NCBI GenBank assembly: GCA_002269645.1
Contig: NIVC01000166.1
Location: forward strand, 124,001-188,000
DNA: 64,000 nucleotides
Source: Macrostomum lignano
Taxonomy: Eukaryota
Direction: 5' to 3'
In this document: one piece after another, positions 1 through 59,814 of the stretch
How positions within the stretch are numbered: position 1 is the stretch's first letter
How the letters are laid out: every line of letters begins with the position of its first letter
Notes under the pieces: generated by a model
The model's database searches: none
Seen by the model: only the letters and a program-made list of their open reading frames with translations
What the model was told of the DNA's origin: nothing
Translations under genes and position numbers: made by a program

Positions 1-569
1 TTGTCAAATATATATTGTAGTAGTTCTCCGCCTGAATCGGCATTGCCATAGTCTATAAGGTACACAAGGGCGCGCATGCCCCTGTAAGCCTAATATGACG
101 ACAATATGAATAATATATAAATAGTGATGGCATGAATAGTATAAACATAATAGCAAGGACAAAAATAATTAAAATAATTGATAGCTTAGAATAATCCTAT
201 TGCATCCGTTCGGTGTTGCCGAAGTCGATGAAATGTATAAGAGCGTCACCTCTGACGTTAATACCCCAAAGCCACATAATGTGCATTATACGGTTGGTAA
301 TTAAAGCATAACTACTGGCGACGAATTAAACTCATAAATAACTCAAAAAGAAAATAAAAACTGAAAAAAGCCATTGAAAACTCGGAAAAAAATGCATATA
401 GGAATATAGCTAGCTCAGTTCGCTACTCAGCCCATTGACGAGTGCAGCAGCGCCACCTTCGTCAAAAATTATTTGCAGATTTTGGTCATATTTCGCAAAT
501 TTCATAGTATAGCTATCATAGGTATATATTTGTGGGGCAAAAGTAAGCACTACACACACACACACCGCA

Positions 570-860
570 CGCACGCTTTCTTCTGCCTTTGGCGCGTAGC
601 GCCATCCTCTGCCTTTGGCGCGTGGCGCCGTTCTCTGCCTTGGCGCGTGGCGCCGTTCTCCGCTTGGCGCGCTGCGCCGTTCTCTGCCTTGGCGCGCTGC
701 GCCGTCTCCGCCTTGGCGCGCTGCGCCGTGTCTCCGCCTTGGGCGCTCTTGCGCCGTCTCCGCCTTGGCGCGCCGCGCCGTGTCTCCGCCTTGGGCGCTC
801 CTGCGCCGGTTTCCTTCCGCCTTGGCGCGCCGCGCCGTGTCCCGCCGCCCTTGACGCTTG
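570..860. repeat. GC/CpG-rich degenerate minisatellite (~20-22 bp units, core GCCTTGGCGCG..GCGCCGT) in the Gypsy 3' UTR
   Basis: Tandem units are visible directly; a homologous array lies at ~52170-52580 on the opposite strand. Confidence 0.85.
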
Positions 861-1393
861 GCGTCGTTTGCCCGCAGTTGTCCGGACTGTGTCTCTGTGC
901 CGTGCCTCTGCTCTGCATCCTTTGCCTCATCCATCTGTCATCCTTGTTCTGTGTTTTGCCTCATCCATCGTATCACTTCTGCGCGTCCGTTTGTCGTTTT
1001 TATGATCGCGCGCCGCGCGCTCTGTTCCGCGCTACTTTGTGACCATTATCATATTTTGTTATGTTTTGTAACGCCACCATACTATGCTACTCGCGCTCAC
1101 CGCGCTCTACTGCTCTGTAATCCACCTACCGTCTCCTTCGTAATGTTCTGTAACTTTCTGTAATCCTACCACCTGTTCTGTAATTTTGACTTCGATTATT
1201 CAGCCACTTGTAAGCCTGTGGGTTAGTAATCCCTAAGGCCTCCAGTAATCATATACTCACATAAACTAACTCAACTCCACTGTAATTCATTCTACTGTAA
1301 TTTCATATGCTGCGGTCATGCTGTGTTTCTGCCGTCACCCCGCGTGTTGGTTTTCTTTTGCGTGGCCCTATCCTTTTTCGGAAGGGAGGCGGG

Positions 1394-2225
1394 TGTGACG
1401 TTGTCAGTTAAAGGTGGTCCCGAAAAGGGCCGCTGGACTATATTTTCCCTTGTAATTTCTCATATTAATTTCTCCAATAGTTTATTTTAACGTTTACTTA
1501 TAGTAGCGTGCAAATAATTTTTATCAACTGCTAATTCACTGTGTATTGGATAGACCTTGCGCCCGTCTGTAAATTTTGGCACGATCGATAATTTTAAGTT
1601 CTCTCGCCAGCCAATGAAAACCACTCGTGCTTCGCGCTACCCCCCTCTGCGCTCCTTTATTAAACCCCCTGCCTGGCGGCGGGCACTCCACCTTCCTCTC
1701 TCCTCTCTTTCTTATCTGTTCTTCCGTCCCCTTTTGCGTTCTTGTCTGGCTGCCTCGAGCCTCCTTATTTCTCGCCACGGCCCCTCTGTCTGGGCCGGCC
1801 TACTCACACACTTACTTGACTGCCTGCCACTGTCTGCCACGGCTAACGCCAATCTCACCACTACGCATCTGCCACTATTGTACTCATCGCCGTCTGTTGT
1901 ACTCATCGCCGTCTGTTGTACTCATCGCCGTTACTCACCACGTTGCATCGTCTTGCATCACTCGCCTACCACTCGACTACAATCTCTAACTCACCTTCAA
2001 TTCAAAACCATTGTTGCAGCCGCCAGTGCCCAAAGCGCAATAAGTTCTATATTGATATTAACCGCATCGAATATTGATCTCAACAATAATAACCAACTAC
2101 GGCCAGTTTCCGGCCTTGTATGCCAAGTGCTCCGCTACACAAATCCGCTATCAAGACTTGACTCGATTCATTTGGGACTAAAACGGCCCTTTTAAGGGTC
2201 ACGGACAACATCAAATAACGTGACA
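1394..2225 (+). repeat. 3' LTR (TG...CA, ~832 bp)
   Basis: TG/CA termini, preceded by a polypurine tract at 1380-1393, homologous to the LTRs at 50860-51689 and 58631-59459. Confidence 0.9.
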
Positions 2226-2435
2226 GTATTCTCATAATTCAATGGGAATTAATCGTTGTAAGTGTGAAATGGGGAGATTGACCGAAATGAAGCGAGGATG
2301 AGCGAAGCGAGTTGAGCGAAGTGAAGACGAGCGATAATGAAGGGAAAAACGAGTCATTTCACACTGATAAAGGGTTAAATCGTTTTGAATTATGAGAACG
2401 GTTTGCTGGCAATTTTGTACCGTCAATATTATTCT
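2226..2435. mobile_element. Outer ~210 bp of a Polinton right terminal inverted repeat (second copy of the family)
   Basis: Near-identical to ~59608-59800. The terminus is a variant (…AATATTATTCT versus …ATATTACTACT). Confidence 0.9.
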
Positions 2436-4324
2436 CGTGCAATCTTCACTTCTGTCAATCTTCAACACCAGCCTACTCATATCGCATATCCTCTGTATTT
2501 TTTCCTGTTCTCTTGGGTGAGGTCTATTTTTTGTGAGCAAGTGAATGCTGGAAACTGCGCTCAAACAAACGCCCACAGTGCTGATCAATGTAAACATCAG
2601 GTAAATTTAAACTTGCTCAGAGCAAACACTGAAGGCCACGCGCCAGCACCTGGCACATTTTTTTCTCGCGATTAACGTGTTAGTGGAAACTCAAATTACA
2701 AATGTCAGGGCGAAATTTATTAAGGTGAGTTGGCAATACAGTGTAATTTGAAAAATATTGCAAGGAACTAACCTAGATATTTAGTTCTGTTACCACCGAT
2801 GACTTATGTGATGACTCATTTCCTATTAATTTTTCATCCACATGAATCTCTGCACTATTGTAGGGGTTCACTGAAGTGCGATGCACTCAACGAACTCTTG
2901 ATCCTTCAAGCTACGAGTACATTCCGACGTTGGATTGCTTTACGAGCTTCCCCCCCAGTCACGTGACCTCTCATTATGCGCACGCATCTTGATTTTATTA
3001 GCCAATCACAGTTTGCGCCGGTCAAGGACACATCAAGGCCTCTGTGTTCACGCATTGCACGAATGCAGTTTTCCACTCTTTCTGACCCCCGGCCCACTCC
3101 ATCCACAGCAGAAAGCCGTGCATAACGTCTACTTTAAGTAGCTTACATGCAAAAAAGATGAGGGCTTTTAAAAAAGAGGAAATAAAGTAACAATTTTAAT
3201 GGAACATTCAATTTCAATAAACTAGCGATATACTTTTCTATCTGCCTGTGAGATTTAGGGATATTTTAAACAAATATTGATCGAACACGGACAGATGAAG
3301 TAGAAGGATGCTAAAATCGATTTTGTAAAAAAATTATCGAGCTGGATGGAGGCAGGTAAGGAAACGGTGTATTTGTAGTATAGCTGACACATTTAATACA
3401 CTCAAGAGAAATCGAACCCCTACTTAGCGCTATGCATTCTAACCAGCGATATTTTGAATACTAAAAAATTTAGCGCGTTTTTTTTGAAGAAAAATACTTG
3501 GCAAGTTTTGGTAATGGCAATTTTCTGCGAAAATTTACATAACAAACAGCCAATGCAAGCGTATAGAATTGGTTAAGTTCATGTCTACGCTTGTAAGTGG
3601 TTGCTAATGAAAAGAAAATATCAACTATGAATTCTATAGAGTTTTTTATCAGTTCGCACATATAGCTCAAATACAAGACAAATTAAAAAAGTTTAAAAAA
3701 ATCTCTGCCAACTATAGTTACCATCACTGCAACACTACTATCCTACAGTAGCATAAATAGAGTGTTACAATCTCTTTTTGTTGAGAAAATAAAGAAATTT
3801 AGTAAGTTAAAGTAGTGGATAGCGGTTTCAGCGAAAGGTTTATATATAGAATTAAGAATACCATCACACGTTTGTTTATCAAAATAAACTTCAAAGATCT
3901 GAGTGAAAAACTGAGACAATCTCTGAGTTCAATTAGTCTGAATATTTTATGAAGCTGCAGATATTACATAAGCATCACTCACAATGCGATTTGATTGTTT
4001 TGTAATCTAGATTACATAGGCAATGACTGTCAGAACCATTTGTGTCTATACCATTTAATATATATTATTTTGAAATTGAAATTCTGTCTTAGAATCATTT
4101 CATTTAAACAAAAATGATGTGTAGTTTCCTGCTTCGGTACAATTTTTACTGGCGGAGCTGCATAACAGGCGCCTTTCTTTACTCTATTGAAGTTAGTTTA
4201 GTCTGTCTTGTCAGTCTACAAGCTGAGTATACGAGTATGAACATTTATTTAGTAACTATGGCTGCAAATCATCATTATCGAGATCACATTGATGTACTTT
4301 TAGTTTGGACTTATCACGTCAACG

Positions 4325-10168: not shown

Positions 10169-10891
10169 TTTGAGCAGAGTACAGGACTGGGGTCTCCTCA
10201 GGTAGAATTCTGTAGGCTTGGTCTTGACAACGAGAGCTTTGCAAGTAGATAGATTATGTAGACTGCGCTGTCTAGTTACTTGTAGACAGAGGGCCAAAAT
10301 GGCGGGTGGAGGGGAGGAGGGAGGGTGGCATGAAACACATTGGAGTAATGCACGGGGCGGGCGGCCAGTCCTCTCTACCCGCATTTACCCTGCGCAGCAC
10401 CAACCCCAGTGAGCGGCAGAAAGGCAGAAAACTGCATGCACAACTGTACAATACGGAAACAAGAGCTATGTGTATAGCCTTTATGGCGGATAGCTGAAAA
10501 AGCAAAAACTCTAAAGTACGTTTTTGTAATCGGGTCTGATATGGGTTCGGCTGAATTTGAAAAATGGAGACGAGATGAGCGACGCTACTAAAAGCGCTGC
10601 TGGTTTTGCAGCGATATTGTAGCCTCTACGCCAAAGCACGTGACAACTGCTTTAGGGTATGAGAGCTCTTTAGTGCTGGAATGTACGCCAAAGATATGGT
10701 ACCTTGTTCAGACTTCTTTCCCTAGATGCACACTGTGTCAGACAGTGGTTAGGATAAATGAATAAAAATGAATAATGTGACAACCTAAAAATTGGGTTGC
10801 AGAAAATTACGCCAGTTTTCCAGCGTTAAGATTTGCCTAGTAGCGAAATCATTGCTGTAGGGCGATTAAATTAAACGAGAACTCCCTGTCC

Positions 10892-26464: not shown

Positions 26465-27610
26465 ATGGTGAGTTAAAGCATCATGGTTTTTCTTTGAAGC
26501 TGAAACCACGAATAATCAATGGCCTTGACGTTTATCCACCTCTAGACCAACGAGACAATCAGCAACCTCATCCCGTCTGAAGGAGGCTTCGAGAAATTCA
26601 ATAGGTTGATCTTCTCCTGGCTATTCCCCCTCGTGATGGCATTCGGGACCTTCGGCAACGCCTCGTGCATGCTGGTGCTCCTGCGAAGACCAAAGTGCTT
26701 TCCTTTCTCTGTCCGGCTTAGCATGCTCAGCTGCTGCTTCGTGGACTTCCTGCTCGTCGCTGTGAAGTCCATCACGCACTATTTGTCCCCAGTCGTCATG
26801 GGAACAATCCTAAACGTTAGCGACTATAGAAGGACCTCGAGCTTAGCCGTGTGCATCTTATACTACTGGCTAACCATCTGGCTTCTGCATGGTAGCCCGT
26901 TTTTCCGTCTGGGCCTCTGCTTTCACTCGCTTGCCGTGACTCTGGTCCCACTCAAGCAGGCCACGTTGCTATGCAAAAGGAACGTGGCACTGTACCAGCT
27001 GCTACTGCTGCTGCTGAGTCTTATACCCTGCACCAGGATGTTCAGCACCTACTGGGTTGTTGAGTTACACAAATGCTTTTTCTATGAGGACTGGATCGAG
27101 GTTTTCTACAGGATATTCACGGTGTTTGTAGGCCGAATCGTAGTGGTAGTGTGTCTGTTGGTGACCCTGCTGGTCATCTTGCTGGGCGTAAGGCGCACGC
27201 GGGATCACCTGCGCGGATCGGTGATCTCTGTCGGTAGTTCTCGCGCTGCTGGGCCTCAAACCAAGGCGGTGACCAGCATCTTTGTGATGACTAGCGCCAT
27301 TTTCTTTTTGTGTGAAATGCCGTACAGCATACTGAGAGCCCTGCTGAATCTAGAGCTAATCAGGGGCACCAGCGATCTGAGCGAGGTGGTCCGTGTATTG
27401 AATGGTCTGATGTACGTAAACCCGGCTCTCAACTGGCTGCCTCTCTTGATCGGAGCGAAGTTTCGACACGAGTACATAAAAATGTACTGCTGCTTGTGCT
27501 GCCGGGTTCAAGAGAGCTCCAATAGATCTCGTTTCAACGAAATTTCAATGACAGCTCGTGCGAATCAACAACGAGCGAGCGCTAGTGCCTCATCAGTGCA
27601 GGCGGCTTGA
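26465..27610 (+). CDS. Class-A (rhodopsin-like, peptide/chemoreceptor-type) GPCR, ~355 aa, 2 exons
   Basis: Exon 1 is the ATG alone (26465-67, followed by GTGAGT). Exon 2 runs 26546-27610. Protein starts M-TNET (N-glycosylation sequon) and shows GN in TM1, CEMPY in TM6, VNP in TM7 and a Cys-rich tail. Confidence 0.85.
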
Positions 27611-34128: not shown

Positions 34129-34453
34129 AGTAGTAATATACGTTACAAAATTGCCAGCAAACCGTTCTCATAATTCAATCAGTTTTACCCTTTATCAGTG
34201 TGAAATGACTCGTTTTCCCTTCATTATCGCTCGTCTTCACTTCGCTCAACTCGCTTCGCTCATCCTCGCTTCATTTCGGTCAATCTCCCTATTTCACACT
34301 TACAACGATTAATTCCCATTGAATTATGAGAATACGCTCTCGTCGTTCGCTTTGGTTTGCTGGCAATTTTGTAGCGCACCCAACACTTCTAACACTTCCA
34401 ATTCTCTATAACCCCTCGCACGCGCCGCAGGCGCGAACGGTCTTTTTCTGTTA
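34129..34453 (+). repeat. Left TIR (325 bp)
   Basis: Reverse complement of 59490-59814 with one mismatch seen. Confidence 0.95.
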
Positions 34454-34459
34454 TAAAAA

Positions 34460-34774
34460 ATGAACCGAGTTTACACCTTTTCTGTTAGTGATACTTTTGA
34501 GACTGTTGCTAAAAATGCAGAGATAATAAAACAACATATTTTGAATGGAATAATTGATGAAGTTTATTTAAAGTATGATGATAAGCACGACCTAAAACTT
34601 TATCCATTAGAGTTGGATGGGATGTATGATTTAGAACAAGAGGGTGAGTTAATATTTCAACTTGGAGATTATTTAAATTCGGATGATTGGGAGGTTCGTT
34701 CAGATGATTCCAACTCAACAAATAGCTCATATGAAACTAGTGATTCTGAGAATGAAATTGAAATTTTTATGTAA
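34460..34774 (+). CDS. Viral hypothetical protein, acidic C-terminus (104 aa)
   Basis: ORF with TAAAAAATG start context directly inside the TIR. Confidence 0.6.
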   Translation: MNRVYTFSVSDTFETVAKNAEIIKQHILNGIIDEVYLKYDDKHDLKLYPLELDGMYDLEQEGELIFQLGDYLNSDDWEVRSDDSNSTNSSYETSDSENEIEIFM

Positions 34775-35012: not shown

Positions 35013-36646
35013 TTAGTTAGCAGACATTAGCTGGTTCTCATAAAAAGAACCTAATATTTCTTCACCATCCTTATCAGCAATTATATAGGTTGTAGGATTT
35101 GTATTTAAAACTTTACTGATGGTAAATTTCTCACTTATCTTCCAATATCCTTTTCTTCCTTTTTCAAACTTATCTTTCCATTTATAGATATAAACAGAAT
35201 CACCAACTTTAAAATCATTAGTTTTCTTTTTTTCAAATTCTCCAAAAGTAACTTTAACGTTTTCAGGATTGTTATAAGCTTGTTGAGGAGTCATCTTTAT
35301 AGCCGAATGATATGAATTATTATAATCTTTCACGACGTCTGGTAATATTTTTACCCACTTTTGGTTTCCATTAAGACTAAACTGAAACCACAATTTCTTA
35401 CCTAAAGTTCGATTAAATCTTTCAATTAATGCATTTTTGCTTTCTCCATAAATAGAATAAATTTTATTAATATACTCCCCATTCGCGTCTTTTTTCCTTT
35501 CTTGTCCTTTTTCAAAATGATATAATTTATACATATGAGGATTGTAAAATTCTTTTCCCTCATCAACACACAAGCGTTCGCTTTTTTCATCAAGACTTCT
35601 AAAAGCAGCAGCAACATCCTCTCCTTTTTTGGATTTCAAAGGAACTGCCCACGCGTATCGAGTAAAACCATCCAATATGGTTAAGATATATTTATATCCA
35701 CTATCGATCGGCATCGACATTAAATCAGCATACCAAATTTCATTTTTTTTGAAGTTCATGATTTTTCTATAAAATTTAGGTTTTCGATATTCTTTATGAA
35801 GAATCTTTGCCTTATCAGAACTTAACCCACTGCCACTTAATAGTAAACACTCAACACAATTATTTCCATGTTGATTGTAATTAATTCCCAAACCAAATTT
35901 AACTTTAGACTGCAGAATCTTTTTAACCATCCACCTAGTTAATCTTTGGCCTACTGACAATCCTTGTAAGTTATCTAATCCTTGAATCATTTTTTGATCG
36001 GCTTCATGTTTTAATCTTAATGCTTCCTCGGGTGAGTTCTTATCAGCATCTCTGTATGCTAAGTCATGATAGTATGCTAACCAATCAATACCGTTAATGG
36101 GAATTGAATCAGCTTTTGGAGTGTCATCAGGATTTAATCGGAGATCGAGTCGAGTCAACCCGGCCTTTATACCTTTGCTTTCACAAAGGAGTAGACTGTG
36201 TCTTAAGCTATCATAAGGATTGACTAAGTCCCTCAAGCCCACCAGCGTACAGTCGTTGCATCTCAACCATACTCAAGTCATACGAGGTTAGGTTTTCGAT
36301 TCACTCTTGTCCATATATATCTTCAAGCTTGTTACCGTTGGGAACAGGAGTTACCTGTGTTCCTTCAGAAGATTTCTCAACTGAAGTGGTACTTGAAGCT
36401 TTAGGAGATTGAGTGAGCGGCCGGTGTTGCCACTAATAGTGACTAGCAGTAGGTTTGCTTCTACCACTCGGGCACAGCTCGAGCTCCACCCGTGAAATTA
36501 TGCGATGGCAGGTGTAATTCATTTGTATACCTTCCAGTAGTAAAAACGCTTGGTAAGCTTGTTAATCCTTTTTGTAAGTCTAAAAATCCTCCTTCAAATA
36601 CTAATTGGTCGAACCTACGGTTCGTGAACATCGTTCGGTTGCTCAT
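35013..36646 (-). CDS. PLA2 (parvovirus/adintovirus-type) fused in frame to rve integrase, interrupted by a group I intron
   Basis: Exon 1 (36646-36488) ends ELHLPSHNFTG. Exon 2 continues TRLDLRLNPD…PINGIDWLAYYHDLAY (PLA2 HD motif), then integrase D-D-E (WYADL, VDEGKEF, ERFNRTL) and a Polinton-type C-terminal domain. Confidence 0.85.
36156..36487 (-). ncRNA. Group I self-splicing intron, IC1-like (~323-332 nt; 3' splice site ambiguous between 36165, 36164 and 36156)
   Basis: P1 CGGGU/GCCCG with U.G at the 5' splice site; P3 CACCGGC/GCUGGUG; P4 UCACUC/GAGUGA; full P5abc (P5a CUUCAAG/CUUGAAG, A-rich bulge, GAAA-capped P5b, P5c); P6 AUC/GAU; P7 A(C)GACUGU/ACAGUCU; J8/7 AAGAC; P9 CCUUUGU-GAAA-GCAAAGG. 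Confidence 0.9.
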
Positions 36647-37863: not shown

Positions 37864-39339
37864 ATGGCTGAAACAAAAACTATATGGAGTGATAAATTTC
37901 ATTTCAAAAAGCACCGTCAGTATATTAATGAGGTTAGGGCAAGAGATTTAAATTTTACTCTACCAACAAGTGATAATTCAAATAACTTTACTACCGGAAC
38001 GGTAACTTTTGACATCGGTGCAACCAACACTATATTGGATATGAAAAATGCGTTTTTCCGTGTTAGATGGTTGTATACCAGAAATGATGGAACTGCTCTT
38101 GCTGCCGGTGATATCGCAGATCGTTCTGGAATAATAATAGAAAATGATTGGTTTTATAAATGTTTTTCCCAAGCACAACTATCAGTTAATGGAGCCGAGG
38201 TTGAGACAGCATCAAACCCCGCAGAGATTAATGGAGTTTTGAAACATTTAAATTATACTTATTTATCAAAACAAGTTGGTGATAATGTTGGGTGGATGCC
38301 TGATAAGGGTAATGGACAAGCAGTAGTTTTCCCTAATGTACAAAACGCAGCAGCTTGTGCAGATGCCGCAACTCTTGTTGCTTATCTTAATACCAATATA
38401 GTTCCAGTTGTAACCACCATGACTAATACAAAAGATATTAATACAGGTTTTATAGATCGTCAGAATAAATTCCCAGTCGCGGTTTTAACCACAGCAACAG
38501 CATATGAGCAGGACTTCTCAATCTTCCCGCTATTTGGGTTCTTCTCACCAAATCGGGTATGGAAAGGATTAAAATTTGGGATACAGTTGCAAATATCTGG
38601 TGGATATCAGCCTAGGATACTTTATGGAACCTCAATTTCAACCGATATAGCAGTTCGTATAGATTCAATTCAATTAGTTGTACCAACTCTTGAGGTAACA
38701 GCCCCACTTTTAAAACACATCGATAATCAGTTAACGCACGATCAGGATATATTTTATTTGAATCGTCGACATTTTATGCGAACCATTAATAATAATCAGG
38801 ATTCATTCCAGTGGCAGATAATTACATCAAAACGTCGGGTGAGATATATTTTTGTTTGGTTTAAAATAACAAACAGAAGGAGTAAAAGAGCAAATGGGGA
38901 TTTATATTGGCTTCAATCCGGTGCCATAGCAGAACAAGCAGCCACCGCATCAGACAATGCGGCTTCAGCTATTAACGAGTTTAATGTTCAGAATATCCGC
39001 CTGCAGGTTGATGATCAATATTATCCGGTTAAAGACCCCCTTAATCTAAATATAGCAAATAATAATGTTAATGATTTTATAAAATATTATCAAGATTATG
39101 TCAAAAATGAAGCGTATGCAGTCCCTCAGTACACACCCACAGAATTTCTAAACATTCATCCAGTGGTTGTTTATGATCTAACGGCACAGAAAGAAAACGT
39201 AGCCAATGTTGGACTTAATTACATGTTAGAGATTAATAAAACCGGCAATCAGGCAATCGACGCCCACGTATTGTTTCTAGAGGAATATATGTCAATTGCT
39301 AAAGCTGATGGCACGATTGTTCGTGACGCCCCGCTGTAA
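37864..39339 (+). CDS. Major capsid protein (double jelly-roll, Polinton PY type), 491 aa
   Basis: Size, beta-rich composition, motifs LSVNGAEVE, RYIFVWF, IRLQVDDQYYP and HPVVVYDLTAQ, and position before the ATPase. Confidence 0.8.
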   Translation: MAETKTIWSDKFHFKKHRQYINEVRARDLNFTLPTSDNSNNFTTGTVTFDIGATNTILDMKNAFFRVRWLYTRNDGTALAAGDIADRSGIIIENDWFYKCFSQAQLSVNGAEVETASNPAEINGVLKHLNYTYLSKQVGDNVGWMPDKGNGQAVVFPNVQNAAACADAATLVAYLNTNIVPVVTTMTNTKDINTGFIDRQNKFPVAVLTTATAYEQDFSIFPLFGFFSPNRVWKGLKFGIQLQISGGYQPRILYGTSISTDIAVRIDSIQLVVPTLEVTAPLLKHIDNQLTHDQDIFYLNRRHFMRTINNNQDSFQWQIITSKRRVRYIFVWFKITNRRSKRANGDLYWLQSGAIAEQAATASDNAASAINEFNVQNIRLQVDDQYYPVKDPLNLNIANNNVNDFIKYYQDYVKNEAYAVPQYTPTEFLNIHPVVVYDLTAQKENVANVGLNYMLEINKTGNQAIDAHVLFLEEYMSIAKADGTIVRDAPL

Positions 39340-39398: not shown

Positions 39399-40154
39399 AT
39401 GGTAAAAGCAAAACACGATAAAATATTTCCAAATGATCCTTTTCTTTGTTTAGTAATCGGAGGATCAGGTAAAGGAAAAACACACTTTGTTTACGATTTA
39501 TTAACAACAGATGGAATGCTAGACTATAATAATTTAATAATTTATACTAACAAACCTAGAATAAAATATTATGAATTTCTTAAACATGGATTAAAAAACA
39601 AATTAAAAAAAGATATTATGTTTAGAATGTTAAGAGCATATGAGCAATATGAGGACGATGATGAACCAAGATTTACCCTCGACGACATTGAGGATTTATG
39701 TAAAACAACCGCAAAAGAACCGGAAAACACCACCGAGAGAGCCCCAACTGTTAGAGTATCAACCCGATTATCCTATGATCAAATTCCAAAACATGATAAA
39801 ACACTAATTATTTTTGATGATTGTATTAATGATGGTGATCAAGAATTGCAAAAGGAAATTTTTGTTAGTGGTAGAGGAGATGGAATTGGAGCTTTTTATC
39901 TAACACAGTCCTTTAGAGATTTAGAATCGATTATAAAAAAGAATGCTAGCTGTTGTGTAATGTTTGATTTAGATAGCTATGATTTACAAAATATACACGC
40001 TAGATTTAATCCGGGGTTGGATATAAAACCATTTAAAAGTATGTGTAAAAAAATTTGGGATGATAGCCAATACAAACATATTTATATCAATCCGAGGTTA
40101 GAAAGGAAACATAGAATTTTAAAAGATCTTAACGAGGATAACGAGGAGGAATAA
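39399..40154 (+). CDS. A32/FtsK-like genome packaging ATPase
   Basis: Walker A GGSGKGKT, Walker B LIIFDD, and GR…YLTQS. Confidence 0.92.
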   Translation: MVKAKHDKIFPNDPFLCLVIGGSGKGKTHFVYDLLTTDGMLDYNNLIIYTNKPRIKYYEFLKHGLKNKLKKDIMFRMLRAYEQYEDDDEPRFTLDDIEDLCKTTAKEPENTTERAPTVRVSTRLSYDQIPKHDKTLIIFDDCINDGDQELQKEIFVSGRGDGIGAFYLTQSFRDLESIIKKNASCCVMFDLDSYDLQNIHARFNPGLDIKPFKSMCKKIWDDSQYKHIYINPRLERKHRILKDLNEDNEEE

Positions 40155-45749: not shown

Positions 45750-48700
45750 TTAGTTTTTTTCAAGCGCTAGTTCATCAATATCGAACTCAAAACAATTATA
45801 ATCAACATCAAATAGTAAACTGTTATAATATTCAATTGAATGTTCGTGTTGCGGTTTGTCATCAAAATAGTTTTTAAAGAATGGTTTCATAACTCCGTTT
45901 TTATCCGGTTTTTCTCTTTTAAATGTGTTTATCGTAGAAGTATATGTTTTTGATATGGTTGAACCGCTTTGAGGAATTATTATACCACCTTCAAACGTTC
46001 GTTTCCACGGAGCATTATTATTTACTTTTATTTTGACTGTCCATCATATAAAGTTTTAAACGATGCAAAATTAATCTTATCATTTGCACATCCTTTAAAT
46101 GTTTTTTTCTCTTCCATAATAAAATCATCTTTCAACAAAAGACAATATTTAATTTTAGGAGCGATAAAATATCCGAATATAATTCCACCCTCTCCATAAT
46201 CGTTTTTTCCTTGACTTAAATTATTTCCAACATGACCGTTTTTATTTAATGTGTCCCAATGTTTTTTATGTATATATAACGAATCCGTATCGCCGTAATA
46301 AATTTCTGGAGTCTTTGAACCATCTATAGAGGCGATAAAATTATTCATTATCCTTCTTGAATGAGCTAAGATAAATATTCCTAATTGTGCCGGACAAAGA
46401 CCTGTTGTAGGATTATCATCCTCTTCTAGATATTCTTGTGTGTCTTTCTTTTTTTCAACATAATATAAATCGTCACATATTTTCTCATATGACTTAATTG
46501 TGTCATCGTATTCTGTTTTTAATGTATTCAAATTCCAGAGATGCGTTGTGAAAGTAATGTCTCTTTGAACCGTTTTACCATATAAGGAATTTAACAATGT
46601 TTTTACTAATTCAGAACCCGCCTCGTTATTTTCTTTTTTAAATACTTTTCTCATTTCAAAAAGGGTTGTAATATAATTCTGAAACGGAGAGAAATCGTAA
46701 TTTTTTTCATATATAATTCCACTATATATCTTTAATATTTTTCCACCCATTCTTACAATTTCTTGTATGTCTACGGAACATAAGGTGTCGATTACCTTTC
46801 CATTTCTAAACCTATTTAATGTTTTTGTTTCGTTTGCTTTTGTTTCCGGATTATAAAATTTCTCTTTATCTTTCGATGGGAGATGTTGAAGAAAAACGGT
46901 GGTAGGGTTCTCATACATAATCTTTAAAACCGCTGTTTTTGGTCGAAAGGTTTGTGAATTAAATTGTGTCAAAAAATCCTTTTCCTCGCTTATATCAAAA
47001 ACTCTGGCTGTTTCTGCTCTTGGATATTCACTATCCTTATCAGACATAGCAGATGGGTACAACGAGACTCCATCAAAATTCATTAAACAATCTGATACGG
47101 TACCCAATTGGTTTTTTAATTTAATTGCGATTTTCTTTTTTTCTTCCATATCGCTTTTGAGATAAGTTGATATAACCTCGCATGGGTCGCTTGTTGGTAT
47201 TTTTAAATGGTCTTTTACAACGTCTACAATTGTTTGAAAACAGTCACTTTCGTATTTATTTATTAGTGCAAATACTCTGCCTCCTTTGACTGCGTCCCTC
47301 ATAAACTTTCTTATATAAGGGTTGGTATGAGAGTGAACCGAAAATTCTTTTCTTAATAGTGTTTGATATTTTGCTTTATCAAGTTTGCTCAAGTCAAAAT
47401 AATCTTCGATTTTCAGAGGAGATATAATTTCTTCAACTTTTTTAATGTAATTACTTTTTTCTTTTGTCTTTAGGTATTGTTTCATTTTGTCTTCAACTCT
47501 AACAAAATCTTTAAACCAACATTTTAATGTTAAGCTCGAACATGTAAGAGCATCAAACATTGTCATTCCTCCAATTTCATATGCTATTTCATTATACTTA
47601 TGAATACAGGCACATAAAGAAATAAGATCAAATTGTAAATATTCATACCATTCATCCATGCGCTCTAGGTAGTCGTGTTCGGTAATGTCGTGAACCATTG
47701 ATGTCTTGCGCAAATCCTCTCTAATTGTCATTGATGAGCAAAACTTTTTTAAACTCATTGATGCGTGTTGATATGAACAAAGCATTGTAATGGTTTGTTT
47801 CGAATCCTTGTGATTCTTCTTCTTATCTTTGTTTATAAACGCACTAACCTCTTTTGACATATAATCGTTTACAAAAGTGATTGATAATATTCCTCTTGAG
47901 GTTTTAAGAATTTTAATTGGTTTTATATTACAAAATAGTGGTATGTATGAATCGAAGCGGGATGAGTTGTGTGCGATCAAAACAATCTTTTTTGACCTAA
48001 CTGTACCAAGGTATTTAAACATTTTTCTAACACAGTCAACCTTTGGTTGCGAACCTTCGGTACGATCGGACTCCATCCGCGAACCTTTGGTTCGATCCAT
48101 TTTATCTCCATCTGTTTGAAAATCACAACCGCGATCTGATATCAAGATCTTAGTTAGTTTCTTTATTGTTTCTGGGGTTTCGTTACAATTATTAGAAAAG
48201 TCGTTATAGTTTAAAAGACCAACTGCATACGGGCATGCTTGTTGATTATAATTTAAATATGTTTCAAAATCAAATATGTATACATTTGATTTATTGGGAT
48301 TTGTGGGTGTATTAAACATTTTTATCTCTTTAACATTTTCAGACGTTGGGTTTTTAAATACTACTTTATAATTGTTTTTTATCCGTTCAAGACCGATTCC
48401 TCGTTGTTTATTAGATATAAGACAATAATGACCAATGTGGTAATCGGGTGTGTGATAGTAATTTATTAATAACCAGTCGTGGTGAATCCCTCTTTGAGAC
48501 TTTGGTTCAATTCCACGATTATTAGGATTATACAGCCCTATATTAAGATTAAAATATTCGTTGAATTTTCCAATTCTTGAATTTGTCATTAATCCTCTTT
48601 GGGTTCTTGAGTCGTACAACCAACCACCATATTCGTCTTTGGATGGGGCTTTATCACCATAAATAAACTGAACACACTTGTAGAAACAATTTCCATCACT

Positions 48701-49180
48701 AGGTATGTAGCAGTACTCATCTTTATACTCTGCAATTTCACACATGACATTTGTGCCCATACCCTGCTTTGACCTTTCGTGTTTAAGTGTGATTTCGTTT
48801 GGTGTCATTTTAAGTCTTCCAGAAAACACACTTAAATTCATGTCGTAGTTTTCTACCAAATGCTTAAACCAAGCTTGAAATTGACTTATATTATAAAATG
48901 TTGCTAAGTATTGATTAATCTCTTCGCGATCATCTCCGGTTTTATTATAAAAATATTGTACCCTCGCATTAGTAATTTCAACACTATATCCGTTTGAAAG
49001 CTGGGTTTCAATAAAATCTAGGACATTCTGCATTGGTTCAAATCGATAAACCCTAATAAACTCATCTAATGATTTTTCATTCGATTTATTCTGCGCTTTC
49101 CGACGTATTTGTTTCTTTTGGTTTTTTTCTAATTCTGCTATTCTTTTTTCATATTCAGCCTTTTCTATTAAACGCTTCAT
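45750..49180 (-). CDS. polB: Protein-primed family B DNA polymerase; apparent 1-nt frameshift at ~46035 cuts off the last ~90 aa
   Basis: Exo motifs FDFET, HNSSRFD and LQFD; polymerase motifs DGVSLYPSAM, KTLLNSLYGK and YGDTDS. A second frame continues APWKRTFEGGIIIP… to a TAA at 45752-50. Confidence 0.93.
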
Positions 49181-50859: not shown

Positions 50860-51689
50860 TGTCACGTTATTGGCGTAGCGGCCAGCTATGCGGTGACCCT
50901 TAAAAGGGCCGTTTTAGTCCCAAAATAAGTTGAAGTCAATTCTTGTAAAGCGGATTTTGTAGCGGAGCACTTGGCGATAAAGGCAGGAACTGCCGTAGTT
51001 GTCTTTATTGTTAATATCAGTATTAAGTTTGGTTGTTACTGGCAATAAACAGACTATAGCTTTCTGGGCACTGGCGGCTGCAGCAATGGGTTGAATATAA
51101 TTTGGATATGAAGTCAAGTGGCAGGCGAATGACACAATGGCGACGTGACGTGAGCAGTGGCTATGATCACAGTGAATGCAGTGAAACGTAGTGGTGAGTT
51201 GGCGTCGGTCGTGGCGTGAAACAGTCAAGTAAGTGTGTGAGCAGGCTGGCCCAGACAGAAGGGCCGTGGTGAGAAATAAGGAGGCTCGAGGCAGCCAGAC
51301 AAACAGATAAGACAACTAAGAGGCCGCAGGGAAGGAAACAAGGGACAGGTGGAGGAGAGACGAAAAAGGGGTGAGGGGTGCCCGCCGCCAGGCGGGGGGT
51401 TTAATAAAAGAGCGCAGAGGGGGGTAGCGCGAGCACGAGTGATTTCATTGGCTGGCGAGAGAACTTAAAATTATCGATCGTGCCAATTTTATACGGTTGC
51501 GAGAGAGGATAGCAAAATATACAATGAATTATAAATTGCCACAAAATCGTTGGGCACTACTACAAGTAAACGTCGCAATAAACGAATGGAAAAGTTTAGT
51601 TGAAACGGTGAAACTGAAGGGTTGAATGACTATGGAGAACAGCAGTCCAACGGCCCTTTTCGGGACCACCTTAAACTGACAACGTCACA
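50860..51689 (-). repeat. 3' LTR (830 bp)
   Basis: Near-identical to 58631-59459 (one substitution and one G-run indel noticed). Confidence 0.95.
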
Positions 51690-51703
51690 CCCGCCTCCCT
51701 TCC
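51690..51703 (-). promoter_or_regulatory. Polypurine tract
   Basis: GGAAGGGAGGCGGG on the minus strand adjoining the 3' LTR. Confidence 0.85.
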
Positions 51704-52169
51704 GAAAAAGGATAGGGTCGCGCAAAAAGAAAACCAACACGCGGGGTGACGGCAAGAAAAACACAACGTGACCGCAGTTTATGAAATTATAGCAGAGTGA
51801 ATTACAGTGGGGTTGAGTCAGTTTGTATGAGCATATGATTACCGGACAAAATTACAAAGTTCCAAAGGCTACAGACTATTACGAGAACAGAACATTACAG
51901 GGCAGTAGAACACGGTGAGCACGAGCAATACAACATGGTGGTGTTACAAAAACATTACAAAATACAGCAATGGTTACGGAAAGTAGTGCACGACGGAGCG
52001 CGCGGCGCGCGCGAACACAAAAACGACAAAGGACGCGCAGAAGTGATACGATGGATGAGGCAAACACAGAACAAGGATGACAGATGGATGAGGCAAAGGA
52101 TGCAGAGCAGAGGCACGGCACAGAGACACAGTCCGGACAACTGCGGGCAAACGACGCCAAGCGTCAAGG

Positions 52170-52580
52170 GCGGCGGGACACGGCGCGGCGCGCCAAGGCG
52201 GAGAACGGCGCAGCGCGCCAGGCGGAGACGCGGCGCAGCGCGCCAAGGCAAAGAACGGCGCAGCGCGCCAAGGCAGGAAACGGCGCAGCGCGCCAAGGCA
52301 GGAGAACGGCGCGGCGCGCCAGGCGGAGAACGGCGCAGCGCGCCAAGGCGGGAAACGGCGCCACGCGCCAAGGCAGGAAACGGCGACAGGGCGCCACGGC
52401 AGGGAACGGCGCCACGCGCCAAGGCAGAGAACGGCGCCACGCGCCAGGCAGAGGATGGCGCTACGCGCCAAGGCAGAGGATGGCGCTACGCGCCAAAGGC
52501 AGAGGACGGCGCTACGCGCCAAGGCAGAGGACGGCGCAGCGCGCCAGGCGGAGGACGGCGCTACGCGCCAAAGGCAGAGA
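52170..52580. repeat. GC/CpG-rich minisatellite in the Gypsy 3' UTR
   Basis: ACGGCGC(AG/TA/CA)CGCGCCAAGGC units. Confidence 0.85.
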
Positions 52581-53587
52581 GAGCGTGCGTGCGGTGCGGT
52601 GTGTGTGTGTGTAGTGCTTACTTTTACCCCACAAGTATTATATCTACCTAGTGTTTATGGAATTTGCGAAATTTAATGATCAATTGCAGTTGATTTTTGA
52701 AGTAAACGACGCTGACCTGATCAGCCAGCTGCGCAGCGTTACGCTGCACTCGTCAATGAGCTGACCAGGGTCGCGCTGCACTGAGCTAGCTATGTTCCTA
52801 TATGCATTTTTTCGAGTTTTCAATGGTTGCTTTTTCAGTTTTTATTTTCCTTTTTGAGTTATTTATGCGTTTCACTAGTCGCCAGTAGTTATGCTTTAAT
52901 TACTAACCGTATATTGCACATTATATGGTTTCGGGGTATTACTATTAGCGTCAGGGATGACGCACTTATTCATTTCATCGACTTTGGCAACACCGAACGG
53001 GTGCCATTGCTATCAATTATTTAAATCATTTTTGCCATTGCTATAATGTTTATACGTGCCCTAGTGTATTTTATCGATTATGGCAACGCCGATGCAGGCA
53101 GAGGACGTCTACAGAATATTTTGACAACTGTTATATTTATAGTATTCATCTCGTAATCATTTTTCGACCAATATATGCATTATTTTATGCCATATTTATG
53201 CATTAATTTTTTAGTTTACTTTTGAATATTTGAGCTAAGGCTAATGTCTTATCTACTATTTGTTTCTAGCGCCGTAGTGTATTCTATAGACTACGGCAAC
53301 GCCGACCAGGTGCAGTCGGAGTTGGGTGCTGCGATATTATATATATTCTTGCGTTAGAACAATATAGTATTTATACTGTCGGCATATTATGCTAATTCTG
53401 CTAGTGTTTTATTTTTATTTTATTTATTTTAGTTAGCTATATAAATTATCAAATTGCAATGTCGCTGCAGTTTATCCCCTTGACTACGGTGGTTGGCTGT
53501 TGGCTGGTACAGCTGTGGAAGTTGTGCACACTAGTATCTGGCAGTGAGTAACAGCTGTGGCTTGTGTTTTGTGGCTTGCGGCTGGCA

Positions 53588-53815
53588 GATGCCGCAGGGA
53601 CCTGTGACCAACAGGTGCCACAGGAGGTAGTTTAACGCCTTGCCCGGGGCGTGAGCTTGCGGTCTACAGGTGCCGCAGAGACCTGTGGCTGACAGGTGCC
53701 ACAGGAGGTAGTTTTACGCCTTGCCCGGGGCGTGAGCTTGCGGTCTACAGGTGCCGCAGAGACCTGTGGCTGACAGGTGCCACAGGAGGTAGTTTTACGC
53801 CTTGCCCGGGGCGTG
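53588..53815. repeat. 81-bp tandem repeat x~3 just downstream of pol
   Basis: CAGGTGCCACAGGAGGTAG recurs at 53612, 53693 and 53774. Confidence 0.85.
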
Positions 53816-53827
53816 AAAAACTGGCGG

Positions 53828-56800
53828 TTAGTGTCTGCTTCCCCACTGCTGGAGCAGGTCGGACACTTGACAGGTCCGGTACCTGACAGGCGGGCGGATG
53901 GGGCGTCCGTACCTGGATCTGGGTACGTCAGCCGGGGCTGGTGGCTCAGCTGCTTGCGCAGCGACTGGATTCGCAGCAATCTCAGGTGGTTCTAATTGCT
54001 CGGAGGAAGGGTCCCCCAAGGAAGCCGTGTACAGCGACTCTGAGCTGTCTTGGCTGTGGCTGGTGTCAGTGTCTGTGCTGTCAGTGTCAGTGTCTGGTTG
54101 TGGCTGTCCCTCAATAACTACAGCATCGCCAGCTTCGGCGAATGGTTGGCCTTCTCCCGCTTCAGCTCCCGCCCCCTCCTCAAAGGCGCCTGAAGCTGGC
54201 GGTGGTGGATTTGGCCCTGGCGCTCTGCGTGGGCTCTCTGGCCGGGCAGAGGAAGGCTGGGGAATGGTGACGAGGCTAAGCTCGCTCGCGGGTCCGCTGG
54301 GCGGGTTCACACTAGGCGCTGGAGACCTGGCATGGGTGGCCTCACCATACCGGTCAACTACGTCTTGGTAAGTGGGCTGTCTGATGCACGGTTTGAGGCG
54401 GTCAATGTTGTAAATGTTATGGCGCGGATTTGGCACCCGATCTGCTGGGTTTAGGAGACCATACTCGGGACTAAACGGTAAGTCCGCTCGGAGCAGCGCT
54501 GCACTACTCGGTATGGCCCCAACCACACAGCGGGTTCTATGCCCTTGTGGTTCGGGTTCAAGACCCAGACTAACTCTCCCTCGTGGAACTCAGCGCGGAG
54601 GGCGCGGCGGTCGTAATACCTTTTCTGCCTCTCCTGGGCTTTACCCCTAGTGCGGCGGGCTAGGGCAGAGGTTTCGACTAGCGTGCGGTGCAACTGGTGG
54701 GCGTACCTCTCCGGCTGGTAGTGTTCATTTGGCGGTGGATTGTGACAGAGGTCGAGCGGTAGTTCGAACTCACGCCCGAAGAAAAGTTTGGCTGGAGTAA
54801 ATCCGGTGGATTCGGCGACTGTGGCACGGATTGACAGGGCGGCCAGGCGGCTGGCAAGGGGCCAGTCGCATTGTCTCTCAAGACAGATGGCTCTAATCTG
54901 GGCTTTCACCGTCTGGATCATCCTCTCAGCTTTACCGTTAGCCTGAGGGCGACGGGCTGTGATCCGACCCATGTCAATCTGTAGGAGCCTAGTTAATTCT
55001 ATCATGGTACTATTGATGAAGGCAGTTCCGTTATCAGACACCAGCTGCTCCATCACCCCATACCTGGCAACCCATTCAGTCAGGATGGTTGTGGCAGTGG
55101 TCTCTGCGCTGACGTCGGGAACAGGGACTACTTCAACAAACCCGGTGAACCTGTCGATCATAACCAGCAGGTACTTGTACCCGTCACACTCTTCGAACGG
55201 GCCTGCGTGGTCCACGTGGACAACCTGGTTCGGGTAGCCGGACAGTTCTGGTTGCATAGGGGCCTTGAGCTTACGCTTTGACTTCTTAGTCTTAGCGCAA
55301 ACGGTGCATTCGGCCAGGACCCCCTTGACTATAGTATCTAAGTCGGAAATAACGAAGCGCGCCTTCAGGGCGGCCATCGTCTTGGTGATACCGCAATGGT
55401 TCAACTGGCCATGATACTGAAGGACCAGATGACCGACGTCTGCGGTCTCAGGCACCACCAGGCGCCTGTTGGCAGTCTTGGCTTTGGAGGATTTGGCTAA
55501 GTACAATAGACCCTCGACTACTTCAAGGTCATTGAATTGAGCCCAGAGTGAGCGCATTTCCCGGCTACAACCCTGCAGTTCGGCCTTGGACAATGGCTCA
55601 GTCTTACACTGGACACTGGCGATTAGGCGCGCCATGTCAACACAGGAGTCCTGGGCATTCTGGGCCCAGATGAGCTCAGGTGGCACTTGGGATTCGGTTT
55701 CAGGTTGACGGGATTCAGTCTCTGGGCTAGGAACAGCACCGCTAGCAGTAGCGCGGACATTCGGCGTTGGTTCAGCCGGGGCATCTGTGTCAGTCTGACA
55801 CGCTACGCTAATGCCTATGGTCTGGACGCACACCTGACGCAGTTCTCTAGAGGGGGGCGTACGCCGGTGCTTTGGGTCTTGGTCCAGGAATTTCCCTTTA
55901 AATTCCGGAATCTGGCTGCACGTCGGGCAGTCAAAGTGATCGGCTCTGAATTTTGGCAGTCTACTAAGAGCGTCAGCAGGCACGTGGTCAACGCCTGGAC
56001 GGTACTGGACTGTGAAATCGTATTCGGCTATTCGTTCTAGAGTGGACTGCTGGACCTTCAGCGGGTACAGTTCAATGGTGGCAAGCCATTGGGCCAGCAT
56101 ACCAGTGGCATGCTTCTTAGAATGCAGCCATTTGAGCGCGGCCGCGTCCACCCGGACAGTGAAAGGCTTGTCTAATAGATAAGGACGGAAATGCTCGAGC
56201 ATCAGAACGAGCCCTAGCAACTCCCTCATGGTGGCGCAGTAGTTTCTCTGGCTACTGTTGAATTTTTTGGATGCGTAAGCTATAACTTGCTCTTGGCCAT
56301 CTGGCCCGAGCTGGTACAGCACACCCCCAGTGCCGTCAAGCGAGCTATCGCAGTCCAAAATAAATTCGCGCCCTTTGGCAGAGAGGTCTGGATACGCCAG
56401 AATCGGTGGTGAACAGAGGCTATGTTTGAGTTCTTGGAAAGCCCGTTCATGATGCGGTTGCCATAGAAACGGAGCATCCTTTTTGGCTAAGGCATACAAA
56501 GGCGTGGCGATGATTGAGAATCGCGGCACGAATTTCCGGTAATAATTCGCAAACCCAAGAATGATAGAAGCTGTTTCTTAGAAAGCGGTTTAGGCCAGTC
56601 TTGGACAGCCTGAGTCTTCGCTGGGTCAGCCTCAATGCCCCGGCTAGACACAACGAACCCCAGGAATGCGACCTTGTCCTTAAACAGCTCACACTTAGAC
56701 GGCTTAATTTTGAGACCGGCTTTTCTAAGCTGCCAGAGGACCAGCGCGAGATGCGCGATCATTTGGTCGTTGTTGACAGCCTTAATGATAATGTCGTCTA

Positions 56801-58312
56801 AATAGATGAGGCTGACCTTCATCAGGAGAGGTCTAAACACCTTGTGCATCAGTTTCGCGAAATTGGCAGGTGCCGTCTTGATCCCGAATGGTACTACCTT
56901 CCAGCGGAAGGTGCCTTGGGGGCAGGCAAAGGCGGTGTAATCTCTAGCCTCCTCTTTGATCCCTACCTGCCAGTACGCGGAGGTCAGGTCAAGGCTAGAG
57001 AATACAGTGGCCCCGGCAAGGCTGTCAAAAGATTCTTCTATGAGTGGCAGAGGGAAGCTACACGGCTTGATGAGCTTATTGACGGCCCTATAGTCTATGC
57101 AAAGGCGTTGAGTGCCGTCCTTCTTCTTGACCAGAACGATAGGCGACACCCAGTCAGAGTCACACTCCTCAATGACCCCCTGTTCGAGCATCTGCGCTAT
57201 GTTCTGGTCTAAGAATTCTTTTTGTGCTGGCGTGGTGCGCCTGTATGGTTGCGCAACAGGCTTGGCCTTAGGATCTATTAACTCTATGCCCATCTCGTGT
57301 AAATTGGTGTGGCCTAAATCTGCGTTTGATCTAGAAATTTGGCTATTGAAGTAGTTGAGCAGTTTCAAAACGGTGGCGAGTTGGCCCCTAGACAATTTGG
57401 CTTGGTCTAGTTGGAACTGCGTTGTCAGCCATTTGGCTAACTCCCTACTGGCGGCGGCAGCTTACTGAGTTGGCTGGTGAGGTTAGCTACATTGTCCAGG
57501 CTAAAGTCAGACTCCTTCAGGGTCGTCTGAGCTATGACCTCATGACTATCTAATTCCTGGAATGAGGCAATTTCTTGCCCCCTAGTTATCTGAATAGGCT
57601 GTTCCCCACTGTTGAGCACGCGCACTAGTATGTGGTTAGTATCGCTAACTGAGTCTAGAGTCTTGGCTACCAACTGTTCGGTCTCTGGTCCGAGGATCCG
57701 GGACATGACTATACCGGAGGTGTACGGCGAAGAGTCGAGGACACGACTGGGGATCAAGGTTTCCGAGTGCGGGGGCAATTCTACCGTGCCGGCGGCCATC
57801 ACTCGTCGGAGTTGGAAAATCCCCTTGTCCCCCTCAATGACTGGTACCGACACCCCTGCTACTAAAGCTCGGCCAGAGTTGAAGTCTAGCAGCATCTCGA
57901 AGCTGCGCAGGAAATCCATGCCTAACAGGGCTTCCGTGGTACAGTAAGCAGTGACTAGGAATACATGTTGTTTAGTCGTATTACCTAAGTTGATTTCGCA
58001 GCGTAGCGACCCTAGGATGTCTACCTGAGAGCCGCCGAAGGCGGTGGCACGCTGCTTATTGGCACTAGGCGTGAATATGTTATTGACGGGGTCAGCTGCG
58101 ACCAGTTTGGCTTTCACGTCAGCACCCATGATGCTGGCATTGGCGCCTGAGTCTAGACAGGCCAGAACTTTAGAGTCTCCTACTCCTAGCTGCACGAAAC
58201 GACCAGCGACGACTCGCGGCGACGAGCGAAGACCGGCCGAGCAGTCAGGACCCCTGGGCCTGACGTGGCACAGGCTCTCGTAGCCTTGCGGACCGAACCT
58301 CAGGCGTGGCAC
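53828..58312 (-). pseudogene. pol: Gypsy pol (aspartic protease, RT, RNase H, integrase with GPY/F) broken by about three frameshifts
   Basis: LDSGA (protease), YLDD (RT), DCDSS…ELLG…DAAAL (RNase H), H..H..C..C and VDHAG/SDNG/AER (integrase), WLGPY. Frames change near 57430, 56570 and 54480. Confidence 0.92.
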
Positions 58313-58418
58313 AGACTCTCGCAGCCTTGCGGACCGAACCTCAGGCGTGGCACAGGCTCTCGTAGCCTTGCGGACCGAACCTCAGGCGTGGCACAGGCTC
58401 TCGCAGCCTTGCGGACCG
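58264..58418. repeat. 41-bp tandem repeat x4 where gag would be
   Basis: CGTGGC recurs at 58264, 58305, 58346 and 58387. Confidence 0.85.
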
Positions 58419-58607
58419 TCAGGCAGAAACGTGGCAGGCCGGCACTCAGTCACGAGCCGGCAGAGCTGAGCAGAATCTTGCTGACGCTTGGTTGCGAGCT
58501 GGCAGGGCTGAGCAGAAGTCTTGATGGCGCTGATTACGAGCTGGCAGGGCTGAGCAGAAGTCTTGATGGCACTGACTTAGTTGCGAGCCGGCAGTGCTGA
58601 GTAGGAG

Positions 58608-58624
58608 TCTCGGTGGGACCTCCA
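58608..58624 (-). promoter_or_regulatory. Primer-binding site complementary to the tRNA-Gln 3' end
   Basis: Minus strand TGGAGGTCCCACCGAGA, 6 nt from the 5' LTR. The plus strand TCTCGGTGGGACCTCCA matches the known metazoan tRNA-Gln 3' end. Confidence 0.85.
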
Positions 58625-58630
58625 AAATTA

Positions 58631-59459
58631 TGTCACGTTATTGGCGTAGCGGCCAGCTATGCGGTGACCCTTAAAAGGGCCGTTTTAGTCCCAAAATAAG
58701 TTGAAGTCAATTCTTGTAAAGCGGATTTTGTAGCGGAGCACTTGGCGATAAAGGCAGGAACTGCCGTAGTTGTCTTTATTGTTAATATCAGTATTAAGTT
58801 TGGTTGTTACTGGCAATAAACAGACTATAGCTTTCTGGGCACTGGTGGCTGCAGCAATGGGTTGAATATAATTTGGATATGAAGTCAAGTGGCAGGCGAA
58901 TGACACAATGGCGACGTGACGTGAGCAGTGGCTATGATCACAGTGAATGCAGTGAAACGTAGTGGTGAGTTGGCGTCGGTCGTGGCGTGAAACAGTCAAG
59001 TAAGTGTGTGAGCAGGCTGGCCCAGACAGAAGGGCCGTGGTGAGAAATAAGGAGGCTCGAGGCAGCCAGACAAACAGATAAGACAACTAAGAGGCCGCAG
59101 GGAAGGAAACAAGGGACAGGTGGAGGAGAGACGAAAAAGGGGTGAGGGGTGCCCGCCGCCAGGCGGGGGGTTTAATAAAAGAGCGCAGAGGGGGTAGCGC
59201 GAGCACGAGTGATTTCATTGGCTGGCGAGAGAACTTAAAATTATCGATCGTGCCAATTTTATACGGTTGCGAGAGAGGATAGCAAAATATACAATGAATT
59301 ATAAATTGCCACAAAATCGTTGGGCACTACTACAAGTAAACGTCGCAATAAACGAATGGAAAAGTTTAGTTGAAACGGTGAAACTGAAGGGTTGAATGAC
59401 TATGGAGAACAGCAGTCCAACGGCCCTTTTCGGGACCACCTTAAACTGACAACGTCACA
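58631..59459 (-). repeat. 5' LTR (829 bp)
   Basis: TG…CA, adjacent to the PBS. Confidence 0.95.
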
Positions 59460-59489
59460 AACGTGTGTCATTTTTTGTTCTATTTTTAG

Positions 59490-59814
59490 TAACAGAAAAA
59501 GACCCTTCGCGCCTGCGGCGCGTGCGAGGGGTTATAGAGAATTGGAAGTGTTAGAAGTGTTGGGTGCGCTACAAAATTGCCAGCAAACCAAAGCGAACGA
59601 CGAGAGCGTATTCTCATAATTCAATGGGAATTAATCGTTGTAAGTGTGAAATAGGGAGATTGACCGAAATGAAGCGAGGATGAGCGAAGCGAGTTGAGCG
59701 AAGTGAAGACGAGCGATAATGAAGGGAAAACGAGTCATTTCACACTGATAAAGGGTAAAACTGATTGAATTATGAGAACGGTTTGCTGGCAATTTTGTAA
59801 CGTATATTACTACT
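59490..59814 (-). repeat. Right TIR of the Polinton (325 bp)
   Basis: Inverted copy of 34129-34453. Confidence 0.95.

Follow-up and report, generated by a model that had tools for sequence, protein, structure and literature searches.

A Ty3/Gypsy lineage of Macrostomum lignano is inserted in Polintons more often than random integration predicts, and this excess appears for the most part to be explained by base composition and to lie away from the Polinton ends. At least eight independent insertions of the lineage were found in Polintons, each at its own site, corresponding to about 1.6% of approximately 505 insertion events; the excess is real and measurable, and targeting is weak at most. 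We consider it probable (roughly 0.6) that the lineage is an ordinary Gypsy one whose copies insert into the AT-rich, dispensable DNA of Polintons that have already integrated. Two of the eight insertions, elements 1 and 2, lie wholly or partly in the window, i.e., the whole stretch of 64,000 nucleotides analysed here (contig NIVC01000166.1, abbreviated C166, positions 124,001 to 188,000 of the forward strand), and are referred to as the discovery cases. Positions given without a contig are those of the window.

The window contains a Polinton bounded by a left terminal inverted repeat (TIR) at 34129..34465 (+), starting with AGTAGT, and a right TIR at 59477..59814 (+), which measure 333-338 nt and are 99% identical. 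The 6-bp target site duplication (TSD) TTGATC is found at 34123-34128 and 59815-59820, and the same motif forms an empty paralogous target site at 26606..26611 (+), where the host repeat occurs a second time. Additional Polinton/Maverick traits were present, namely an rve integrase (35013..35990, minus strand; PF00665, E 4e-7, just below the gathering score), a packaging ATPase (39399..40154, plus strand; PF04665, E 5e-7), and a protein-primed-type DNA polymerase B (46028..49180, minus strand; PF03175, E 2e-18). The reading frame at 37864..39339 (+) is a lead for the double jelly-roll major capsid protein, with a feature score of 0.98 to capsid-like clusters, a recognition score of 1901 against a threshold of 2300, no match in Pfam, and only non-significant matches in PDB. 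Likewise, the candidate frame for an adenovirus-like cysteine protease at 41172-41612 had no Pfam match. The frame at 36615-37130 weakly resembled Eco47II-type restriction endonucleases (E 1e-5), and its position is occupied by different sequence in other Polinton copies. The right TIR holds a long internal palindrome around a purine-rich loop (59565-59814; DNA fold z -7.6). Elsewhere in the window, four caspase-domain reading frames are accompanied by kinase and ankyrin frames in a partly inverted arrangement (4325-16261), and an RT-RNase H frame of another retroelement (19668-21533) and a piggyBac-like transposase (PF13843; 30400-31791) were identified. Short Polinton derivatives (2-4 kb) that have lost internal sequence, with both ends present or with rearranged ends, occur on C393, C1040, C762, C52, and C2506, the last of which also carries a doubled TIR.

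Gypsy element 1 starts upstream of the window at C166:116346. The 3' part of its internal region occupies 1..1393 (+) and ends in a polypurine tract (1381-1393), directly followed by the 832-bp 3' LTR at 1394..2225 (+; TGTGAC...GTGACA). The 5' LTR is located at C166:116346-117215, and the paired LTRs differ by three mismatches and one 38-nt indel. At its end, at 2225, the 3' LTR abuts GTATTCTC, which begins at 2226, while the bases before the 5' LTR read ...GAGAGCGTAT; the TSD of element 1 is therefore the 4-bp GTAT, with one copy at 2226..2229 (+) and the other at C166:116342-116345, just before the 5' LTR. Beyond the 3' LTR, the stretch 2218-2431 gave a 94% BLAST match to the TIR of the window Polinton, and the 208 bp at 2226..2433 (+) form the outer portion of another Polinton's right TIR. 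The inner part of this TIR adjoins the 5' LTR of element 1 on its upstream side and is a 100% match to the left arm at C166:85035-85223. This upstream Polinton starts near C166:84830, ends at 2433, and is followed by its own 6-bp TSD, CTCGTG, at 2434..2439 (+); its TIRs, compared in two pieces, are 98-100% identical, and element 1 is present in the right one only. On the strength of the GTAT TSD, both LTRs, both parts of the TIR, and the CTCGTG duplication, element 1 is a true insertion into one TIR of an integrated Polinton. An assembly join or recombination at 2226 was ruled out, since the TSD and both LTRs are present. The sequence-only reading, which had placed the LTR-TIR junction about 210 bp from the terminus (208 bp as measured) and had expected a second Polinton just upstream, with the 5' LTR, a GTAT duplication, and the rest of the TIR, was borne out in each of these respects. 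Both ends of the upstream Polinton read AATAAT (2428-2433 and C166 ~84830), whereas nearly all other Polinton copies have AGTAGT there; its 6-bp TSD is nevertheless clean. It also includes an exact tandem duplication of 7.2 kb (C166:98555-112954, 100% identical) that spans part of polB and a CACTA-like insertion and is possibly an assembly artefact.

Gypsy element 2 lies in the opposite orientation at 50860..59459 (-), with LTRs at 58631-59459 and 50860-51689 that differ by one mismatch and one indel, a pol split over reading frames, and the TSD AACG at 50856-50859 and 59460-59463. It had been described as lying inside the right TIR of the window Polinton; its actual location is 17 bp (BLAST edge, 59477) to 22 bp (ungapped edge, 59482) interior to the TIR edge and 355 bp from the terminus, between the right TIR and the terminal reading frame 50469-50849. 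The two elements are 96-98% identical in their gag-pol DNA and 72-75% in their LTRs and, given their orientations and their different TSDs (GTAT vs. AACG), represent independent insertions, as had been proposed. Both are recent, as the few differences between the paired LTRs of each indicate. The elements encode, in this order, a gag with a zinc knuckle, a protease (a weak match, E 0.04), reverse transcriptase, RNase H, and integrase, and have the TG...CA LTR pair, TSD, and polypurine tract expected of Ty3/Gypsy LTR elements. A domain-family search of pol returned no chromodomain at the integrase C terminus up to E 1, and the best protein match over pol was 98% identical and named from M. lignano. 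The polyprotein bears a cold-shock domain (PF00313) between the zinc knuckle and the protease, in the region C166:119048-119998 of element 1 and ~58100-58600 (-) of element 2; a protein bearing this domain matched element 1 at 99.7%, and the domain is also found in a related family. The gag and the polyprotein part that follows it are in different frames. Across the lineage, the LTR ends are conserved and the interiors very variable, and at least two sister LTR families have the same first 16 LTR bases.

The frequency of insertion was assessed in the 764-Mb genome assembly, in which the Polinton TIR motif gave 96 matches. The LTR motifs of the lineage occurred 256 times for subfamily A and 305 times for the related motif V (561 in total), the latter linked to the lineage by LTR similarity alone (~68-85%). 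From these counts, about 215 insertion events were estimated for A and about 290, an assumed figure, for V, i.e., approximately 505. These motif counts served as the denominator because the shared LTR 16-mer (383 matches genome-wide, 0.50/Mb) also catches sister families. Among 60 newly sampled LTR sites, taken from 80 picked in two of the three match lists with 20 sites set aside as already covered or at contig ends, 35 belonged to the lineage and 25 to sister families, and none of the 60 had Polinton flanks. Two-LTR elements made up 11 of 55 sampled sites. Polinton DNA was estimated at ~0.7 Mb from 324 kb of matched stretches, the window copy, and the TIR-pair lengths of the other copies. 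The assembly is redundant, with one locus assembled up to four times, which touches insertion and Polinton counts alike.

In the numbering of the window Polinton, the insertions other than element 1, which is in the TIR, are located at position 3864 (C271, two LTRs with an internal deletion), 4270 (C3225), near 8440 (C1412), 8901 (C1075), 9876 (C56), 16048 (C1197), and 16731 (element 2), with those on C3225, C1412, C1075, C56, and C1197 being solo LTRs. Five of the eight are of type A and three of type V. Random insertion predicts 0.46 such events, so the observed number corresponds to a 17-fold excess; without the two discovery cases, six were observed against ~0.44 expected (14-fold, P 7e-6, for random insertion before correction for GC). 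The count is a lower bound, as long copies were picked for their excess length and the expectation takes in all Polinton DNA. The sequence-only reading had expected enrichment in Polintons, and this part stood; about 98% of the ~505 events nevertheless lie outside Polintons, a distribution which that reading had itself named as refuting it.

Chance combined with local transposon density could produce such a pattern if the pair in the window had come together coincidentally in repeat-rich DNA and the remaining matches came from a few old, heavily invaded Polintons. The window was chosen because of its two cases, and insertions are indeed clumped, with several each on C1197, C271, C1412, and C986 and none in many copies. 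However, the six other insertions are in six different Polintons and exceed expectation by the margin given above, and a young age of the Polintons could only lower that expectation. The contigs show no regional excess either: among the matches listed (complete to C2273), which were counted by hand, six 16-mer matches fell outside Polintons in the 13.35 Mb of 32 Polinton-bearing contigs, i.e., 0.45/Mb vs. 0.50/Mb genome-wide, and regional co-location was rejected as the source of the excess. Chance is accordingly disfavoured, and we rate it as quite unlikely. By hand tally, Polintons hold some 20 other insertions, comprising other Gypsy elements and further solo LTRs, CACTA-like elements, one LINE, and one tyrosine-recombinase retroelement. 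This last type is represented by one case, a Ngaro/DIRS-like element with RNase H, a tyrosine recombinase, and split direct repeats inside a Polinton at C1412:81315-85805, the same pairing as in Cafeteria.

The spread of the sites bears on the proposal of the sequence-only reading that the lineage prefers Polinton termini for insertion and may travel in virions as a hitch-hiker. This model could draw on the location of both window elements within 355 bp of a right terminus, on the GTAT site being at the base of a stem within the internal palindrome of the TIR, and on the Ngaro retroelements of Cafeteria burkhardae, for which the available part of the source places 4 of 20 sites in TIRs (PMC8547959). 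The six non-discovery sites, in contrast, fall ~3.9, 4.3, 8.4, 8.9, 9.9, and 16.0 kb into an element of 17.1 kb, none of them less than 700 bp from an end (0.49 expected) and one within 1.1 kb (0.77 expected). For 66 Polinton ends, the inner sequence examined extended to 1.5 kb or more, and three of these ends had an LTR of the lineage within 1.5 kb; two of the three are the discovery cases and the third has its LTR 1.3 kb in, so that the other 64 ends examined gave one LTR within 1.5 kb and none closer than 1.3 kb. Terminus targeting is thus largely refuted. Hitch-hiking receives no support, because no insertion site was common to two different Polinton loci: all eight sites differ, and in the sequence examined no LTR-bearing Polinton had been copied to a second locus. 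Element 1 is confined to the right TIR, and the solo LTR of C56 is missing from the copy on C929, which has the same host flank (99.5% identity). In two cases, the insertion was later than the integration of the Polinton. An amplified LTR-bearing Polinton was also rejected, given that the sole shared insertion, a related one on C100, C327, and C1382, has identical host flanks and is one locus assembled three times. Full elements, moreover, add 8.6-9.9 kb to a genome of 17 kb, for which a capsid size limit may apply. Taken as a whole, the model of terminal targeting and transport in virions is very improbable.

Base composition offers a simpler account. Flank GC at 55 unique target sites was 0.37-0.38 within 400 bp of the site and 0.40-0.42 beyond, and 0.34 for two-LTR copies. 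Polintons have a GC of 0.33-0.34 (0.336 on average over windows) against a background of ~0.47, a non-random proxy taken from 320 windows at 41 loci (Polinton flanks plus the window), so that GC would explain less of the excess if the true genome value were below this figure. On this basis, GC alone predicts a 4.7-5.6-fold enrichment in Polintons, or 8.6-fold with coarser binning. With a GC factor of 5, six insertions were observed vs. 2.2 expected (P 0.024), a 2.7-fold residue; with a factor of 8, the expectation is 3.5 (P 0.14), and setting Polinton DNA at 1.0 Mb while keeping the factor at 5 gives 3.3 (P 0.12). For subfamily A alone, the 5-fold correction left three observed vs. 0.93 expected (P 0.067). 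A bias for AT-rich targets accounts for approximately 5-fold of the 14-fold excess, and the 2-3-fold residue is marginal. Regarding other features of the target, a sequence-specific site was rejected, as 14 upstream positions at 55 sites showed no consensus except A at -7 (32/55), the T at -1 being inflated by the procedure by which sites were picked. A second favoured host element was likewise rejected, with low power, since the only matches among flanks came from duplicate loci or short repeats.

The marginal residue raises the question of whether a real but weak bias of the lineage for Polinton DNA acts on top of the AT bias, for example through an integrase or Gag that recognises a bound protein or a chromatin mark on Polintons that are silenced or transcribed. 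Such a bias is possible, though we think it unlikely. It would be consistent with the eight independent sites and the raw excess of 14-17-fold, with the 2.7-fold residue, and with the absence of a regional excess on Polinton-bearing contigs. Further in its favour, a hand tally of Polintons gave ~15 LTR-type insertions, of which the lineage contributes over half (8), although the species is credited with 137 LTR families, mostly Ty3/Gypsy, in the available portion of the survey of these families (PMC12801592). Sister families, which make up ~40% of the 383 16-mer matches by sample, have an equally low flank GC (0.39, 22 sites) and gave no Polinton insertion in the sequence examined. Against it, the residue disappears with the 8-fold GC factor or with 1.0 Mb of Polinton DNA, 98% of the copies are elsewhere, and pol lacks a recognisable chromodomain. 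Two LTR families used as controls (144 and 54 matches) had one Polinton match each, at a rate similar to that of the lineage under study, but they do not discriminate because both are too small and were chosen for their Polinton match. It is doubtful that, beyond the AT bias, Polinton DNA partly tethers the lineage, whether through a protein bound to Polintons or through a chromatin state specific to them.

The preferred reading, nesting in AT-rich and dispensable DNA, can be laid out as follows. A recently active Ty3/Gypsy lineage would integrate genome-wide, with 4-bp TSDs and little sequence consensus, favouring sites whose surroundings are AT-rich for a few hundred bases. Polintons would act as 17-kb AT-rich islands (GC 0.33-0.34) in DNA of ~0.47 GC; the host can probably dispense with them, and for both reasons Polintons may collect and keep insertions after integrating; other transposons would collect in them in the same way, and many insertions of the lineage would later shrink to solo LTRs. 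The AT bias would arise at integration and not through selection, neutrality probably adds to the retention of insertions in Polintons, and the two together could account for the remaining 2-3-fold excess.

Retroelements nested in virophages or polinton-like viruses have already been described in protists. In C. burkhardae, according to the available text, 91% of type 1 Ngaro copies are in EMALE virophages, and the use of EMALEs as a vehicle is left open (PMC8547959). The two systems have in common a retroelement that has repeatedly entered AT-rich endogenous virus-like elements, with sites in genes and spacers and occasionally in TIRs; in contrast to the tyrosine-recombinase Ngaro, the M. lignano element is a DDE-integrase Gypsy in an animal genome with ~1.6% of its insertions in Polintons (partial text of PMC8547959). 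Measured against type 1 Ngaro, the lineage does not have most of its copies in endogenous viruses (8 of ~505 events), but it does show an excess over random there, 14-fold before and a marginal 2-3-fold after GC correction. Cryptophyte polinton-like viruses likewise carry nested RT elements, which the accessible sections describe as GC-rich, 4-9.5 kb long, with direct repeats, and located in genes or spacers; the hosts of that case are protists, and those sections give no genome-wide enrichment test (PMC12220804). Among nested LTR retrotransposons of plants, some families have regional preferences and palindromes are frequently targeted, as far as the available text goes, and there the hosts are other LTR elements, whereas here they are Polintons (PMC6911290). 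For M. lignano itself, LTR retrotransposons amount to 21% of the DNA of a published assembly in the part of that report at hand (PMC5730564), and the word 'polinton' occurs 0 times in the available text of the LTR-family paper (PMC12801592). In the literature covered, with subscription papers outside its scope, no measured Gypsy-in-Polinton enrichment in an animal was found.

The 14-fold excess represents one route by which endogenous Polintons get broken up. The residue beyond the AT bias, if it held up, would point to a new integrase-targeting cue. Tethering, if true, would provide a DDE-integrase counterpart of the Ngaro-EMALE relation and a safe haven for the Gypsy lineage, with endogenous virus copies being disabled by insertions in the putative capsid gene, in other genes, and in a TIR.
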